Shown here piece after piece: positions 3,481 through 8,827 of a stretch of 24,507 bases of DNA. This DNA is from Minisyncoccota bacterium (GTDB lineage Bacteria; Patescibacteriota; Minisyncoccia; Phycocordibacterales; SBAW01), in contig DATCEW010000084.1 of assembly GCA_036509865.1 (NCBI GenBank), forward strand, positions 1-24,507, read 5' to 3'. Each line of letters begins with the position of its first letter. Position 1 is the stretch's first letter. The notes beneath the pieces are model-generated. The model saw only the letters and a program-made list of their open reading frames with translations, was not told the origin of the DNA and ran no database searches. The translations under genes and the position numbers were made by a program.

Positions 3481-4299
3481 TTATTTCTTTTGAATAGTTT
3501 CTAAAATACGCTGATGATCCTGCTCTGCTGAACCCCACAGATAGTCAAAAACCATCTCAAATGTTTTTCGGATCGCAGGATTTTCGATTATGGTAGTGAT
3601 AATTGCATCCTCGTAAGCCGTGATGGCAACTTTGTTTGCATAAATAATAATCTGGGCGGGGACGGCAAGTTTTTCTCTCGGCACAATACGTCGCGTGACC
3701 AGCCTCTCACTATCGAATGCGATGATTTCCACCGGCGTTCCTTCCGCCAATGCTGTAATAGCCTGCGTTTGTATACCGAGTTTTTTCTGCTCCTCTATTT
3801 GTTTCTGTACCATACCGGCAAGTTGGGGGTGGCGATTATCCTCTGGCGACCGTATAAGCTTTATAGGTTGGCGTTCATTGAGAATATCCTCATACAGCTC
3901 TCCCACACCGGCGATCCCTTCGAGAATCCTTAAGCCCGGCGCTCCAGACTTGGTATTAAAATCGGAGATCAGCTTACCTAACACTCCTTCAACGGCATTT
4001 TTTGCGTCTTTTGCTTTCTCATACCGTTTATCTACCAGTTCTTTGAATTTAAACGGGTGTGCCGCCGTAAAGGTTGCAACATTGCCGGGGAGATCTTCTT
4101 TTTCAATAAGCCCCAGAACCTCGAGCTCCTGAAGCGCCTTATAGCCGAGTGTGCGAGGAACGTTGGCAAGCCTCGCGGCATGGCTAGCTGGCAGCTTTCC
4201 ATTCCTGACGATTGTCTCATATAGCTTAGCCTGATTGATATTTAGGCCGCCTTCTACAAGAGTCTGGTAATAAATAGGTTGGTTTTTTGTTTCATCCAT
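3481..4299 (-). CDS. TrmB-family transcriptional regulator (N-terminal wHTH plus C-terminal effector-like domain)
   Basis: [10 protein letters not shown]...A..A.VPRT..Y..L..L...GLIE is a TrmB-type HTH, and the C-terminal [10 protein letters not shown]...IIENP.I...F..VF..LW is typical of the family. Start at 4299 preferred over 4308 because TATAAT abuts 4308. Confidence 0.8.
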
Positions 4300-4308
4300 A
4301 ATAGCCAT

Positions 4309-4336
4309 ATTATATAGGCACGTTTAGTTTTGTCAA
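4309..4336 (-). promoter_or_regulatory. Consensus sigma70 promoter of the TrmB-like gene
   Basis: Minus strand TTGACA (4336-4331), N16, TATAAT (4314-4309); ATG 4299 lies 9 nt downstream. Confidence 0.8.
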
Positions 4337-4417
4337 ACAACATTTACAGAAATACGTAGCAAAATAGCCATAAAATGCCTTATTTTAAGTAGTATTTGTC
4401 AAACTATGTTTTGTATG

Positions 4418-4445
4418 TTGACATTATATTTTATTGGCGTATACT
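4418..4445 (+). promoter_or_regulatory. Near-consensus sigma70 promoter driving the accessory island
   Basis: TTGACA (4418-4423), N16, TATACT (4440-4445); predicted TSS about 4451-4452. Confidence 0.8.
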
Positions 4446-4451
4446 TTTGTC

Positions 4452-4901
4452 ATATCCTTATTGCGAGTACCGGAGGGATGCCGGAAAAGAGGAAAGAGGA
4501 TGGTCTCTGACAACAGAATAGGTGATAAGGAAAAACGCAGAACAATCTGTGCTTCGGCGCAAACTGCATCGAGTTGGGTTAATAACAGTAACCCCGAGAA
4601 TGTGCGTCTCCTATGAATTCGAGCTCGGCTCGCATAGGAAGACAGACGCACCCTCAAAAACCGAGTAGAACCTCGGCCTGTAACCCTCATCGCAATGGTG
4701 AGGTGCGGAATGGAGCTCCGCGGGTGTGCGCAGCCCAAAGTTGCTGGTGGCGAGATGTGGCGTACGCGTCGCATCACAAAAGCCAAACCAGAACAGCTCC
4801 GTGTTTTCTCCCCGACCAGCTCTCTGCGATGCAGATTGAGCGGTCGGGGATTCTATTCAACTCGCGAACAAGCTTGCGACTGTGCAAGAATTCGTGAGTT
4901 G
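4452..4901 (+). ncRNA. Large structured RNA / 5' leader of unknown family
   Basis: About ten stems found by eye, e.g. 4455-4464/4522-4531, UUCG hairpin 4548-4561, 4602-4651, 4744-4791, 4809-4850, 4858-4901. G-U wobbles are consistently on the + strand. No convincing CDS. Confidence 0.6.
4856..4901 (+). repeat. Island hairpin element, copy A
   Basis: TTCAACTCGCGAA...TTCGTGAGTTG, 11-bp stem 4858-4868/4891-4901, followed by AAGGAG at 4910-4915. Confidence 0.8.
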
Positions 4902-4921
4902 TTCGAATCAAGGAGATGGTC

Positions 4922-5287
4922 ATGGAAAAAATCCTCAACCTGACGCAACACGCCGCCACTGCCGAGCAAATCGCGGCCGGTGTCGTCGAACCTGCTGACA
5001 AGATTGTGGTGCAAGCGCTTCTCACGTTTGAGGAGTTGCCCACCGCAGGCGAAATCAAAAGACGCGCGAGGTCGCTCTCCGAGTTTGCAGCTACGAGCGG
5101 CTGCAAGACCGCGATGATCGGCGGTGCACCGTTCTTTATGGGGCCACTTGAATATGCGCTTGCGACGGCGGGGATAAAAGCCCTCTATGCGTTCAGCAGA
5201 CGCGAAACCGTCGAGGAAAAACTCCCCGATGGTGGTGTGAAGAAGACGCAAGTCTTCCGCCATGCCGGGTTCGTGTCGACCTTTTAA
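4922..5287 (+). CDS. Small Csx20/CARF-like protein, putative cyclic-oligoadenylate ring nuclease or binder
   Basis: ILNLTQH.AT.EQ, AMIGGAPF, and C-terminal G...LYAFSRRE.VEE..PDG.VKK..VFRH.GF, which resembles the Csx20 pattern as recalled (VY.TT.R.S.E...DG...K.S.FKH..F). SD AAGGAG; start 4922 (alternative 4916). Confidence 0.5.
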   Translation: MEKILNLTQHAATAEQIAAGVVEPADKIVVQALLTFEELPTAGEIKRRARSLSEFAATSGCKTAMIGGAPFFMGPLEYALATAGIKALYAFSRRETVEEKLPDGGVKKTQVFRHAGFVSTF

Positions 5288-5301
5288 AACGACACATGGT
5301 T

Positions 5302-5330
5302 AGGGCGAGCCAAAAATCGCCCTCTTTCTT
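5302..5330 (+). terminator. Terminator-like hairpin after the Csx20-like ORF
   Basis: AGGGCGA (5302-5308)/TCGCCCT (5317-5323) followed by the interrupted tract CTTTCTT. Confidence 0.45.
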
Positions 5331-5354
5331 CAACTCGCAAATGGTTGTGAGTTG
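5329..5354 (+). repeat. Island hairpin element, copy B (minimal)
   Basis: TTCAACTCGCAA-ATGG-TTGTGAGTTG, 10-bp stem 5331-5340/5345-5354, then GGAG at 5366-5369. Confidence 0.8.
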
Positions 5355-5375
5355 ATTGAGATTTTGGAGATGCCC

Positions 5376-5573
5376 ATGATGAATAGGCCCGCAACTGCGC
5401 TGGAGCAACTCCGGCAGCGGCAAGGAACGCAAACTCTAAAACGGCTCATCTACAGATGCGTCGGCCGAGAAGAGATCGCGCTTGCCGCGCGACGCTACCG
5501 GAGGTATCTTCCCAAGCTCGATTTCAGTCGAGACGATTGGAAAGATCAGATCCAAAACTTGCCCGATTCATAA
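5376..5573 (+). CDS. Small basic hypothetical protein (65 aa)
   Basis: GGAG 6 nt upstream of ATG 5376; flanked by elements B and C; no recognisable motif. Confidence 0.6.
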   Translation: MMNRPATALEQLRQRQGTQTLKRLIYRCVGREEIALAARRYRRYLPKLDFSRDDWKDQIQNLPDS

Positions 5574-5585
5574 TCGGGCCTCTTA

Positions 5586-5633
5586 TTCAGCACATGATGC
5601 ATATTGGCGAATTGGTCGCCACACCGTGTGCTG
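5586..5633 (+). repeat. Island hairpin element, copy C
   Basis: TTCAGCACATG...CGTGTGCTG, 9-bp stem 5588-5596/5625-5633, inner TGGCGA/TCGCCA stem, then AGGAG at 5636-5640. Confidence 0.75.
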
Positions 5634-5648
5634 CTAGGAGTTCTTACC

Positions 5649-6089
5649 ATGGAACACGAACGCCTTGCAGGAAAACCCTTCGTGCTCATTGAAACAAATG
5701 AGGAAGGGGCCCTACGCGTCATTGATATCGGCGCACACATCGCCGAGAAGTACGGCGACAAAACGCTTGGTGCTCTCTATGAGTTCGCATCGCGCCGCCG
5801 GATCGCTTTTGCGAAAGCGAAAAAAGCGATCATCAAACGCCTCGGCCGTAAGCCTGTCATGGGCTCGGACGAGTGGGCAAGCTCGGAAGAACACCGGGTG
5901 TTGCAAGAGGTTCCTGCTCTCGGCCTTAGTGGCACGCACATAAAGCGGGCCGGCCCTTTGGACATGAAATTGTCCGAATGGGTCAAGGGGTGGCATGGCG
6001 GTTGCCTCGGCAAGTATGACCGCGAGGTCATCAAGGCTCTCGTCGCAACAACGGGTGACGAGACGGCCGCGCTTTTATTGTCGAGTTAG
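5649..6089 (+). CDS. Hypothetical protein (146 aa)
   Basis: AGGAG 8 nt upstream of ATG 5649 (MEHERLAGK...). The ORF-track start at 5604 falls inside hairpin C. Confidence 0.7.
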   Translation: MEHERLAGKPFVLIETNEEGALRVIDIGAHIAEKYGDKTLGALYEFASRRRIAFAKAKKAIIKRLGRKPVMGSDEWASSEEHRVLQEVPALGLSGTHIKRAGPLDMKLSEWVKGWHGGCLGKYDREVIKALVATTGDETAALLLSS

Positions 6090-6099
6090 TCTCGGCATT

Positions 6100-6135
6100 G
6101 GCGAACGCATGTAGTTTACTTCTACCGCGTTCGCC
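6100..6135 (+). terminator. Strong hairpin after the 146-aa ORF (no U tract)
   Basis: Perfect 9-bp GGCGAACGC (6100-6108)/GCGTTCGCC (6127-6135) with inner GTAG/CTAC. Confidence 0.4.
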
Positions 6136-6141
6136 CCCTCA

Positions 6142-6187
6142 TTCAGCACATCGTCCACGCTGCGATCGTCGCAAGCTGGTGTGTTGA
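6142..6187 (+). repeat. Island hairpin element, copy D
   Basis: TTCAGCACATC...GGTGTGTTGA, 10-bp stem 6143-6152/6178-6187, then AGGAG at 6189-6193. Confidence 0.75.
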
Positions 6188-6201
6188 TAGGAGAAGACCA
6201 A

Positions 6202-6390
6202 ATGACCGAACTCGAGATTATCTGCGAGATCACCAAGATCATTCGGATCCGTGATTCTCGGGTGTCTCTTGTGGATGGAATTGCGCGTGCAAAGCGCGTG
6301 ATCGAGTCCCCTGAGGAGCTCGGGCTCCTCTGCAAAGAGACGTTCGAGTTTATTCGCGAGATCGAACGCAGAAACCGCACCGGGCGGTAA
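6202..6390 (+). CDS. Small hypothetical protein (62 aa)
   Basis: AGGAG 8 nt upstream of ATG 6202 (MTELEIICEITK...). Confidence 0.6.
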   Translation: MTELEIICEITKIIRIRDSRVSLVDGIARAKRVIESPEELGLLCKETFEFIREIERRNRTGR

Positions 6391-6535
6391 ACTCGGGACA
6401 TTCTTTTGCGGTCCAAACGCAAGAGAGACGCCAATTCTTTTTGGCTTGAGCGGGGATCCGAAAGGGCGAGACCGCAAAAAAGATGGGACAATCTCTGCCC
6501 ATACCAAGTGAGATGTTGTTCTTTAGGAGGATGCA

Positions 6536-6688
6536 ATGAAAATCACTCTGCAAACCGTGCGGCCCATCAATGTGGCCGCCAAGGCTCTCGCACAGGGGCA
6601 GTTTCGCCCGCAAATTGTGCGAGACAAGAAAAAGTATTCCCGCAAGGGACGCCAATCCTCGATGCGAAAATTCGAGGACTCTATTTAG
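6536..6688 (+). CDS. ArfA-like (alternative ribosome-rescue factor-like) basic peptide, 50 aa; not in the ORF track
   Basis: AGGAGG 5 nt upstream. MKITLQTVRPINVAAKALAQGQFRPQIVRDKKKYSRKGRQSSMRKFEDSI resembles the ArfA core N....L....FR..V...KK...Y.RK but lacks the full KGKGS motif. Confidence 0.55.
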   Translation: MKITLQTVRPINVAAKALAQGQFRPQIVRDKKKYSRKGRQSSMRKFEDSI

Positions 6689-6729
6689 CTCGCGAGCATG
6701 CTTGCAACAATGCAAGAGTTCGTTAGTTG
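6684..6729 (+). repeat. Island hairpin element, copy E (41/50 nt identical to copy A, ungapped)
   Basis: TTTAGCTCGCGAG...TTCGTTAGTTG, stem 6686-6696/6719-6729; overlaps the TAG stop of the ArfA-like ORF. Confidence 0.8.
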
Positions 6730-6735
6730 ATTGAG

Positions 6736-7122
6736 TCAACCAACCAATTTTGAGTTTTTTTCAAGCCACGCGGCTATATCTGCGATAGAAGTTTTTTCCA
6801 CCACAAAATGCACCATCGAATCCTCAATATCTTTTTGGTCAAAAAAGGTTTTATACTCATTTTGCTCGAGTATATACACCGCTGTTATAAACGCCGTACG
6901 TTTATTGGCGTCTACAAACACATGATTGCGCGCGAGGCTCTCGAGCGTTGCGGCTGCTTTAGTAAATAAGTTTGGGTACATCTCGGTGCCTCCAAACCCT
7001 GCATACGGTCGTGCGGTGCACATCTCTAAAGCACCGGCGTCACGCAAGCCGCTTGATCCGCCCGTTTGGCGCAACACCACCTCATGCAGGCGGATAATAT
7101 CCTCAGCAGTAGGGAAGGTCAT
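6736..7122 (-). CDS. doc: Doc/Fic-family type II toxin (death-on-curing)
   Basis: Doc motif NHVFVDANKRTA, N-terminal H....GG..G.RD.G.LE...ARP; 128 aa. Confidence 0.92.
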   Translation of the reverse strand: MTFPTAEDIIRLHEVVLRQTGGSSGLRDAGALEMCTARPYAGFGGTEMYPNLFTKAAATLESLARNHVFVDANKRTAFITAVYILEQNEYKTFFDQKDIEDSMVHFVVEKTSIADIAAWLEKNSKLVG

Positions 7123-7364
7123 TATTTGTCTTTGAGCGCCTCAAGTGCAGGGCGGTAACGCTCGACAGCCTCCTCGGCCCACGCCACGAGCTTTGCATTG
7201 CCGGCACTCTTTTTAGCGGCAGGGGCCTTTTTTTCAACAATAAAACGCCCAGCCTCTCTTGTTACAGAGATTATGTCACCCGCAAAAAAACCTTCCTCAC
7301 GTGCATCTTTTGCAGGGAGTACCACGCTTATAGAGCTGCCTACTTTGAGTATTTTTTGATCCAT
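7122..7364 (-). CDS. AbrB/MazE-fold antitoxin cognate to Doc
   Basis: KILKVGSSISVVLP...EEGF..GD.ISV AbrB pattern, C-terminal ERYRPALEALKD; TAATG stop/start overlap with doc. Confidence 0.88.
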   Translation of the reverse strand: MDQKILKVGSSISVVLPAKDAREEGFFAGDIISVTREAGRFIVEKKAPAAKKSAGNAKLVAWAEEAVERYRPALEALKDK

Positions 7365-7371
7365 AATATGA

Positions 7372-7403
7372 GTGTATTATAACGGCATTATAATGCAATA
7401 TTG
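7372..7403. promoter_or_regulatory. TA promoter/operator with palindromes, overlapping a divergent promoter
   Basis: Perfect palindrome GCATTATAATGC (7385-7396), a second TTATAA core 5' of it, and CAATATTG (7396-7403). Minus-strand TATAAT is 11 nt from the antitoxin ATG; plus-strand TTGACA at 7401-7406. Confidence 0.55.
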
Positions 7404-7470
7404 ACATTTTGAATCATACATGTTTAAATATAAGAGGATTCAGTTTGGCCCGCAACAAAGGGGATAGGCC

Positions 7471-7641
7471 ATGAACGTACACAATGTGAATATCGCGATT
7501 ATCATGCTCCTCGTTGCAGGAGCAATCGTGGGGCATGACGCCCTCAACTTAAGGGGGGTAGCCCTCATTGCCGCTACAGTTTGCGTCCTTTTTTTGGTGG
7601 CGAGCAAAACCTCGCCACTGAGGATGGAGCTCAAGAGGTAA
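7471..7641 (+). CDS. Small membrane protein, 56 aa, two hydrophobic helices; not in the ORF track
   Basis: MNVHNVNIAIIMLLVAGAIVGHDALNLRGVALIAATVCVLFLVASKTSPLRMELKR; purine-rich SD-like tract upstream and terminator downstream. Confidence 0.65.
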   Translation: MNVHNVNIAIIMLLVAGAIVGHDALNLRGVALIAATVCVLFLVASKTSPLRMELKR

Positions 7642-7663
7642 AGGGTAAATAAAGGGAAAAGTC

Positions 7664-7695
7664 GGGCGGTCGCATATAACGCGACCGCCCTTTTT
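7664..7695 (+). terminator. Intrinsic terminator
   Basis: Perfect 10-bp GGGCGGTCGC/GCGACCGCCC followed by TTTTT. Confidence 0.85.
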
Positions 7696-7762
7696 AATTA
7701 TTCTAAACGCGGTTAAGGGTCTTCTAAAAAGTAACAAAAATACGATATGCTATGCTTTTGGT

Positions 7763-8458
7763 ATGGAGCAGCCTCATTTTGAAAAGAACCCTGGCGGTAA
7801 GGCCGAGGCACTTTCAAAAACTATTTTGCCGTGGAGTGAAAGATCAAAACTCTCTCCAGAAACTCGAGAGCATATAACTACCACCACCAGTCAGGAAGTG
7901 CTCACTTTTTTTCGTGAGGAGGCCGTTGAGTATGACAATCTTTCGCACATGTATGATGTGCTCAAAGGGCAGCCTTTGTTTGTGCGCAGAGAATCTCCAG
8001 AGAGAATACTTGCTGCGTTAGAAAATAATGAATCTTTGCACATAGGATTTCCTGAGGGGGAAAGATATTCAAATGCGGTGATATGGAGTGCTGCACAAAG
8101 CACCAGGGGTCTTGAAAATGCTTATCTAGAAGGATATGGAGAAGCAAATGGCGTTGTTACAGTAATGGGATTTAAACAAGAAGCGGTGCATGATGTCGTT
8201 TCTCTTGATGATGCATCACAAAAATTTGCAGGTTTAGATCGGACCTACGTTCGTTCGATACGAGGCGAGGTAAGGCCAGAAGATATTTTATTTGTTTCTG
8301 TGCGGGTCCCTTTGTTTTCATTTCCTGAAAAAGACATGACTCCAGAAGAGCAAGAACGCTATGAAGAGTATGAGGAATCTAAAAAAAGCGGCGCAAAAAC
8401 AGCTCCTCAATTTATACACCGAGGTTTTTTGTTTACTAAAAATTTAGAAAAGCAATAA
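7763..8458 (+). CDS. Hypothetical protein (231 aa)
   Basis: Long ORF with natural composition; TGcTATGCT 6 nt upstream of the ATG; no family recognised. Confidence 0.8.
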   Translation: MEQPHFEKNPGGKAEALSKTILPWSERSKLSPETREHITTTTSQEVLTFFREEAVEYDNLSHMYDVLKGQPLFVRRESPERILAALENNESLHIGFPEGERYSNAVIWSAAQSTRGLENAYLEGYGEANGVVTVMGFKQEAVHDVVSLDDASQKFAGLDRTYVRSIRGEVRPEDILFVSVRVPLFSFPEKDMTPEEQERYEEYEESKKSGAKTAPQFIHRGFLFTKNLEKQ

Positions 8459-8487
8459 CCACCGCACATCAAAGATATGCGGTGGTT
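8457..8487. terminator. Hairpin between convergent genes, overlapping both stop codons
   Basis: AACCACCGCA (8457-8466)/TGCGGTGGTT (8478-8487). Confidence 0.65.
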
Positions 8488-8750
8488 TACCGTTCGGACT
8501 CTGTCTGACACGACACGCATCGTAATGCGGACGGTATTGTTTTGAGCCTTTTGATCGGGATTGGCCCTCCACAATCAATGCATACACCGTACGTACCAGC
8601 TTGAATCTGGCTTAGGGCCAAATATTGGGCCGGCAATATTTTTCGTGCTTTGAAAACAGCGTCGATTCGGTTTGTATAGATAGCGTTTTTGCACGCTGAT
8701 ATCCTTTTTTGTATTCGCTTTTCTTGACTTACCAAGAAATCTTGAGACAT
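8487..8750 (-). CDS. TraR/DksA-family C4 zinc-finger protein
   Basis: GTYGVCIDCGGPIPIKRL..IP.A.RCVSCQ; start at ATG 8750 with GAGGG upstream. Confidence 0.85.
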   Translation of the reverse strand: MSQDFLVSQEKRIQKRISACKNAIYTNRIDAVFKARKILPAQYLALSQIQAGTYGVCIDCGGPIPIKRLKTIPSALRCVSCQTESER

Positions 8751-8827
8751 GGTAGCCCTCGCTCTTTGTACTGGTTCGTGAAAAATAATAACACAGAAAC
8801 CAAAATGGTGCAAGTTTTACAAAAAGG

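Follow-up and report, generated by a model that had tools for sequence, protein, structure and literature searches.

A phage-type Csx20/MJ1673-family gene leads an accessory operon in a Minisyncoccota genome with no detected source of cyclic oligoadenylate

The locus described here lies on contig DATCEW010000084.1 of a Minisyncoccota bacterium (assembly GCA_036509865.1), of which positions 1 to 24,507 were analyzed and are referred to below as the window. At 4922..5287 of its plus strand the window encodes a small protein of the Csx20/MJ1673 family (PF27247) that falls in a phage-type branch of that family. The open reading frame (ORF) spans 4916..5287, giving 123 aa from the first ATG or 121 aa plus stop from the ATG at 4922. 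As the Shine-Dalgarno (SD) sequence AAGGAG at 4910..4915 of the same strand touches the ATG at 4916 and precedes that at 4922 by 6 nt, the latter is the likely start and the former the alternative. The database gene call (P0001) is also 121 aa long. Residues are numbered from ATG 4916 throughout, and numbers for the 121-aa form are lower by 2. The GGAGATG..CATG block at the start of the gene recurs ahead of the next ORF, at 5366-5378.

A first-pass annotation of the window, made by eye, had singled out three motifs in this protein, and all of them were found in the ORF (NLTQHAATAEQ, MIGGAP and YAFSRRETVEEKLPDGGVKKTQVFRHAGF). They correspond to invariant or near-invariant columns in an alignment of 47 family members, where N8, T10, Q11, H12, Q18, G22, V23, F38 and M67-P72 are conserved together with Y91, F93, S94, R96, D105, G106, K110, F114, H116 and G118. 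Homologues amounted to 1,541 clusters at E≤0.01 in a 90%-identity protein collection and 1,833 representatives at E≤0.001 in a 50%-identity collection. The ORF is real and its homology reaches far beyond chance.

Profile searches were utilized in order to place the protein relative to Csx20. The NCBIfam Csx20 model NF040559 matched its C-terminal third with 27.5 bits (E 3e-6). Three PADLOC Csx20 profiles matched below their cutoffs (29.8 and 20.6 bits among them), and the alignment to the CARF_HEPN_CSX20 profile covered residues 4-119. Within the family, NF040559 matched 46 of the 47 aligned members with a best E of 2e-10, and it exceeds its cutoff in M. jannaschii. The tag PF27247, named MJ1673, is carried by the window protein and all of its listed relatives and also by proteins that NCBI names Csx20. 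A local copy of Pfam-A gave the window protein no match at E≤10, DUF1874 included; PHROGs gave no match, and a sequence search of the PDB with the family profile returned a single chance match (E 0.85).

As canonical reference, the Csx20 of genome G661 (131.7 bits, Cas10 on the same contig) was aligned with 17 relatives. Comparison of the window family with these 18 sequences by hhalign gave a probability of 96.9% (E 2e-10) over 105 columns that run end to end in both proteins. The canonical invariants H7, Q13, G72/A73, Y90, T93, R95, G104, F112 and H114 were paired with H12, Q18, G70/A71, Y91, S94, R96, G106, F114 and H116 of the window protein, so that the polar set of the presumed cyclic oligoadenylate (cOA) face (His, Arg, Ser/Thr, Tyr and Gln) appears to be kept. 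Membership of the Csx20/MJ1673 family can thus be regarded as firm. The by-eye call of Csx20 consequently holds at the level of the superfamily, where NF040559, PADLOC, PF27247 and hhalign all point the same way, but not in the sense of the canonical CRISPR accessory, of which the window protein is no orthologue. The two share a Pfam family, a length of about 120 aa, a full-length profile match and the invariant positions, and a homodimer is predicted for the window protein. They differ in that the window protein has NLTQH where canonical Csx20 has MNH, has MIGGAPFFM instead of QGDFGATYxM, and does not have the W34/P39 block. In addition the window gene does not adjoin Cas10, and its branch is viral for the most part and occurs in scattered phyla. 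Both branches can be seen in G661, a Helicobacteraceae metagenome-assembled genome, in which the canonical gene lies about 6 kb from Cas10 (contig C36, 14772-22688) and a window-type copy is found on another contig (C54, 27098-27352; loci L165, L172 and L058). The two branches therefore coexist in one genome in different contexts.

Structure prediction supports a small CARF-like Rossmann fold and a homodimer. The AlphaFold2 model built from the family alignment (pLDDT 96.6) comprises an alternating strand-helix core and a long C-terminal hairpin. Its nearest ESM Atlas clusters belong to the MJ1673 family (TM 0.92-0.93), and 78-82% of the cluster members are viral. A Foldseek search of the PDB returned nothing at E≤0.001, with Cam1, Sso2081, Csm6 and Cad1 in the weak tail; a specific PDB fold match was accordingly not obtained, CARF proteins matching weakly. 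The CARF ring nuclease Crn1 (Sso2081) was among the weak matches (8htw_B, E 0.07, TM 0.36) and was absent among the top 50 matches of a wide fold search. The predicted homodimer had an ipSAE of 0.64 against 0.00 for the best control, with 64-68 contacts, of which at least 97% agreed between runs, and a partner pLDDT of at least 89. Of 30 solved homodimers 20 attain the ipSAE mark, compared with one of 23 single chains, a calibration that is rough here, where our own alignment was used. The predicted interface is symmetric and is formed by F38-P42, the IGGAPFFM helix/segment, Y91/F93/R95 and the last, C-terminal strands. Many family members are tandem fusions of 2-3 copies or carry N-terminal extensions of about 130 aa (P0121-P0131, P0138; ESM Atlas row 3), and the two- and three-copy fusions fit a dimeric working unit. 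In Bacillota, proteins of about 740 aa join PF27247 to PF27248 (MJ1674_2nd). One cluster (P0053) bears an RNA polymerase alpha-CTD tag.

Sampling across the phylum turned up the gene in 2 of 401 genomes, counting that of the window itself. It was found in none of 36 genomes of the same genus and in one of 200 others drawn from across the order. The 60-70% identity of more than 1,500 clusters and the RNase Y-ClpP-...-Tig synteny had raised the possibility of a housekeeping gene of the candidate phyla radiation (CPR), which these counts rule out. The 60 loci that were collected span Saccharibacteria, Paceibacteria, Proteobacteria, Bacteroidota, Cyanobacteria, Synergistota, Campylobacterota and archaea. 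In IMG/VR, 198 stretches encode a relative, with terminases, ParB, SNF2 and DEAD helicases and VRR-NUC as neighbours; the viral neighbourhoods are diverse and no partner gene is conserved among them. One 150-kb IMG/VR contig carries two family copies in opposite orientation about 60 kb apart (L106/L107), and two copies are also present on a 44.6-kb Chromatiales contig (L040/L041). Four plasmids and two cultured phages encode family members. Rm378p002 of Rhodothermus phage RM378 belongs to the family over its full length (hhalign 100%, E 2.5e-42). The copy of Pasteurella phage Pm86 is of the window type (GGAPFF, YAFSQRE and FKHAGW), and a 71-aa ORF that overlaps and follows it resembles, by eye, a ribbon-helix-helix (RHH) protein.

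Homologues of Csx20 borne on mobile genetic elements of P. multocida have been described in operons of the anti-CRISPR type, controlled by the RHH regulator Aca14 (bioRxiv 10.64898/2026.07.27.740549). Judging from the species and the gene order, the Pm86 copy probably matches the published csx20-aca14 operon. Csx20 has also been found in five phage genomes (Hoikkala et al., PMC12409355), and a counter-defence role of the phage-borne branch has been proposed (PMC12409355; 10.64898/2026.07.27.740549). The window gene may share the role proposed for these mobile homologues, that of a cas-derived ring nuclease turned to counter-defence. It differs from the Aca14-type operons in that no Aca-like RHH or helix-turn-helix gene follows it, and in its setting, namely a CPR chromosomal island with a structured leader, junction hairpins and TrmBL2-like and DUF7230 partners. 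With canonical Csx20 as the root, a tree placed the window copy in a 14-member clade (support 0.95) that includes 12 CPR sequences and is itself nested within a larger clade made up of 22 viral, 17 CPR and 5 further sequences. L015 and L020, whose records are binned as Bdellovibrionales, were counted as CPR by synteny. The window gene is thus a member of a distinct branch borne mainly by phages and mobile elements, and not a stray CRISPR accessory.

The genomic setting of the gene was evaluated by comparison with two genomes of the same genus (G413 and G404), in which the order is PPase-Tig-ClpP-RNase Y and the gap between tig and clpP is 12-80 bp. In the window the two genes are separated by an accessory island of about 5.3 kb (~3539..8827) that holds a TrmBL2-like regulator, a 607-bp intergenic region, the Csx20-like gene, two ORFs, DUF7230, a Doc toxin with its antitoxin, and a 231-aa ORF. 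The gene leads the plus-strand operon of this insertion, in keeping with its earlier description as first cargo gene. The same site holds a Csx20-like gene in other CPR lineages (L002/3, L010, L012, L013, L016, L034 and L162, the last from G589). Identity of these copies to the window protein stays at 55-67% both where the core genes are near (RNase Y 81% in L013) and where they are far (64% in L002), and this flat range fits exchange or saturation better than simple vertical descent. The Doc toxin (Fic/DOC, phrog_577) and AbrB/MazE-type antitoxin of the island lie at 6736-7364. A matching pair occupies 5705-6325 in the equivalent island of L013, a record labelled Nomurabacteria.

The TrmBL2-like regulator (3484..4308, minus strand) is transcribed divergently from the Csx20-like gene and is composed of a winged helix, a coiled coil and a PLD-like C-terminal domain, with a full-length Foldseek match to TrmBL2 (E 2e-15). 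A TrmB-like gene is the commonest neighbour in CPR loci, being found upstream in 13 of them and in both orientations. It was considered as a Csa3-like cOA sensor and rejected, as the TrmBL2-type winged helix and PLD-like domain are neither CARF nor SAVED and a weak PADLOC CARF3 match falls in the helix-turn-helix. A consensus promoter (TTGACA-16-TATAAT, 12/12) at 4309-4336 of the minus strand ends 1 nt 5' of the annotated ATG of the regulator, so that the mRNA would have no leader or translation would begin at the second Met. In the closest orthologue of the regulator that was seen (57% identity; genome G412 of the same genus, short contig C63, 971-1768), the reading frame holds one in-frame TAA.

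The DUF7230 ORF (PF23876; 6536..6688, plus strand; 50 aa) scored 31.4 bits against a Pfam cutoff of 27. In 12 CPR loci, the window among them, it lies 3' of the Csx20-like gene and on its strand, and in L004, L005 and L010 the two genes abut. By eye it resembles ArfA (..A.ALA...FR..V.DKKKYSRKGR..), and a search with the ArfA family PF03889 gave no match to it at E≤1. ORFs unique to the window displace it there by about 1.2 kb. Two ORFs (~67-73 aa and 161 aa) lie between junction hairpins at 5352-6089 and are without homologue in about 150 related loci and without family match. They part genes that are adjacent elsewhere, as if they were cassettes inserted at hairpin junctions.

The operon is preceded by a sigma-70-type promoter (TTGACA-16-TATACT, 11/12) at 4418..4445 of the plus strand. 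The promoter of the TrmBL2-like gene faces it from about 80 bp away, and the interval is plausibly an operator region. Downstream of the operon promoter, at 4446..4856 of the plus strand, lies a structured leader RNA with a conserved core at 4502-4580 that begins with GGTCTCTGACAAC (4502-4514). The core occurs once in each of eight same-genus genomes in which the Csx20-like gene is absent (L175-L182), usually closely 5' of the SD and ATG of varied small genes, and directly 5' of the Csx20-like ATG in L002/L003 (L002, 5700-6000). A variable hairpin of the leader shows compensatory, covarying changes. The window copy seems to be without the conserved 3' half (..ATGTTGTTCCTCGTTGCCGGACTGAC..GGTACGGTACGAGGGATCGCA..) of other copies. 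Identification of the leader as tmRNA, RNase P or another known family was rejected: ARAGORN found none, and Rfam gave no match in the window at gathering score or E≤1 and none in eight full leader copies at E≤0.1. A 132-aa ORF 3' of the same leader in G417, which by eye might have been a diverged homologue, was discarded at hhalign probabilities of 4.7% and 1.2%. The one sequencing run found to contain the stretch was a DNA run from a peat metagenome, which is probably the sample of origin, and no RNA run was listed.

Hairpins mark the boundaries of the units in this operon, all of them on the plus strand. Junction hairpin A (4857..4902) has the arms TCAACTCGC and GTGAGTTG with an inner hairpin and lies directly 5' of the SD. 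A terminator-like hairpin (5302..5323) just 3' of the Csx20-like stop codon is followed by junction hairpin B (5330..5355; TCAACTCGCAA-ATGG-TTGTGAGTTGA), which has the same arms as A and closes the Csx20-like unit, with the near-copy of the SD and start next to it. A second terminator-like hairpin at 5561-5579 precedes a second repeat family at about 5586. Junction hairpin E (6685..6730) lies within a 68-nt repeat at 6672-6739, which shares 79% identity with 4844-4911. Close versions of the form TCAGCTCGCGAA-loop-TCGYGRGTTGA make a stem of about 11 bp in which the G-U pairs form on the sense strand only. These hairpins flank the Csx20-like and DUF7230 genes in L162 (8279, 9234), L003 (6633), L004 (5697), L005, L010, L009 and L011 (2007), and their sequence is kept across distant CPR lineages.

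A source of cOA was sought in the genome of the window, which comprises 562 kb in 84 contigs and is 85% complete. No match to the Cas10 palm2 domain was found in it by a search that was positive in 6 of 14 control genomes, nor were there matches to Cmr2, Csm1 or CD-NTase, and a crude repeat scan found no CRISPR-like array. Searches for the SAVED (PF18145) and Cas_APE2256 CARF (PF09651) domains gave no match in this genome but none in the controls either, and so carry no weight. Among 80 genomes of the genus, Csm-type Cas10 (Csm1) was found in none and CD-NTase in one (G412; SMODS, 37 bits; contig C98, 2573-2935). The gene is therefore regarded as an orphan, as the first-pass annotation had supposed. 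Its suggestion that the protein blunts cOA signalling in its own cell is unlikely in turn, since no cyclase was found in the genome and a single CD-NTase in the genus. Absence from incomplete genomes is no proof, but an endogenous source of cOA in this cell is unlikely.

Canonical Csx20 has been shown by biochemistry to be a stand-alone, metal-independent ring nuclease of type III CRISPR loci that acts on cyclic tetra-adenylate (cA4) (Hoikkala et al., PMC12409355) and at high enzyme concentration also cleaves cyclic tri-adenylate (cA3) (10.1101/2024.09.24.614671). We consider it on balance probable that the window protein is a homodimeric ring nuclease of this family that acts on cA4-type signals made elsewhere, and that it is independent of metal by analogy with canonical Csx20. 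That it would catalyze cleavage of cOA is likewise somewhat favoured, on the grounds of the conserved residues. The dimer would bind the cyclic oligoadenylate across its two-fold axis and linearise the ring, with cA4 as the likeliest substrate and cA3 as a possible one. The site would be made up of the loops after strand 1 (N8-H12 and Q18) and strand 4 (G69-P72) together with Y91, S94, R96 and H116. [quoted passage not shown] In the CPR cell it would be accessory cargo, the first gene of an operon driven by promoter and leader and punctuated by hairpins. The substrate, if it is cOA, would then have its origin outside the cell's own chromosome, be it in a host cell, an infecting phage or a co-resident element, because genome and genus are without detectable cOA cyclase.

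Ring nucleases are the off-switch of type III CRISPR signalling, and their viral versions are anti-CRISPRs. In concept the window protein resembles AcrIII-1/Crn2 (DUF1874), whose cA4 ring-nuclease activity and anti-CRISPR effect have been shown by experiment, in that it too would be a small homodimeric, metal-independent enzyme of viral type that destroys cA4. The two differ in family and fold, and no DUF1874 structure was among the top 50 matches of either PDB fold search.

Several observations weigh against the ring-nuclease reading. The NF040559 score of 27.5 bits falls short of the equivalog cutoff of 70 bits, so that the threshold for orthology to canonical Csx20 is not reached, whereas true Csx20 proteins score 111-132 bits on the same profiles. 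Ring-nuclease activity is inferred from the conserved residues and the predicted dimer, and the grouping of these residues into one pocket is likewise presumed. Genome and genus are without detectable cOA source, and Csm-type Cas10 exceeded its cutoff in only 5 of 40 carrier genomes, all five of them non-CPR. Furthermore, in CPR the gene is accompanied by an ArfA-like peptide and a TrmBL2-like regulator and not by defence or anti-defence genes. With no detectable source of cOA and few carriers with Cas10, a role outside cOA signalling is quite possible.

One such role would be in translation stress, with the protein acting on another nucleotide or RNA substrate, for instance as a phosphodiesterase that works with the ArfA-like DUF7230 peptide and attacks RNA ends bearing a 2',3'-cyclic phosphate or small nucleotides, linear or cyclic. 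We rate this as rather unlikely, although it would account for the recurrence of DUF7230 behind the gene on the same strand (12 CPR loci with the window, abutting in L004/L005/L010), for the missing cyclase in the genome and its near absence from the genus, and for the 35 of 40 carrier genomes without Csm-type Cas10 over the cutoff. The N-terminal and central motifs of the branch also differ from those of canonical Csx20. The canonical invariants are retained, however, which argues for the same chemistry on a similar ligand. The link to DUF7230 is moreover confined to CPR, with no instance in 80 viral loci, and hence cannot account for the family as a whole, and the likeness of DUF7230 to ArfA is one seen by eye.

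The same invariants bear on whether the protein might bind cOA or another cyclic nucleotide and not cleave it, as a sponge or sensor. Tad and Acb2 are phage sponges for which this has been shown. Csx15, the sister small CARF-like protein for which such a role is suggested, has almost no ring nuclease activity (10.1101/2024.09.24.614671). The predicted symmetric dimer with its conserved surface and the abundance of the family in phages would suit a sponge, but two His, an Arg, a Ser/Thr and a Tyr are conserved at positions that are invariant in the catalytically active canonical Csx20, where a pure binder would be less constrained. This explanation is held to be unlikely, slightly more so than the preceding one. 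It is less probable again that the gene is a passenger left by a mobile element and without current function for the CPR cell. A passenger would be in line with the sporadic spread (none of 36 genomes in the genus and 2 of 401 in the phylum, the window's own included), with the Doc toxin-antitoxin pair in the same island and with the apparent loss of the 3' half of the leader. Against this, the ORF is intact, has an ideal SD and a strong promoter and keeps all family-invariant residues, and the clade in which 12 of 14 members are CPR (support 0.95) retains neighbours and junction hairpins across several CPR lineages, which indicates long-term maintenance.

A more elaborate form of the ring-nuclease reading can be put forward as speculation and is considered improbable as a whole. 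A CPR-domesticated ring nuclease would clear cOA that enters or arises in the episymbiont, for example from type III CRISPR or CBASS of the host or of a co-infecting element, while the co-transcribed ArfA-like peptide would free ribosomes halted on mRNAs that cOA-activated RNases have cut. The hairpin-bounded unit would be exchanged between lineages behind an antitermination-type leader. If this were true, cOA signalling would be a currency of conflict between host and episymbiont in organisms that do not themselves produce cOA.

With about 1,800 clusters at 50% identity, the phage-type branch of Csx20 is large. It is widespread on viral contigs, plasmids and in many phyla, is missed by the curated Csx20 equivalog model, and has a resident clade in CPR genomes without detectable cOA cyclase. 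Most worth following are the context of the CPR cassette and how large the unrecognised viral branch is, and the family offers easy targets for biochemistry, such as Rm378p002 of the cultured phage RM378. Were it inactive on cOA, the branch would represent a novel use of the CARF-like fold. An active branch would rank as a second major viral ring-nuclease family beside AcrIII-1 and would raise the question of which cOA-like signal an ultra-small episymbiont must destroy.

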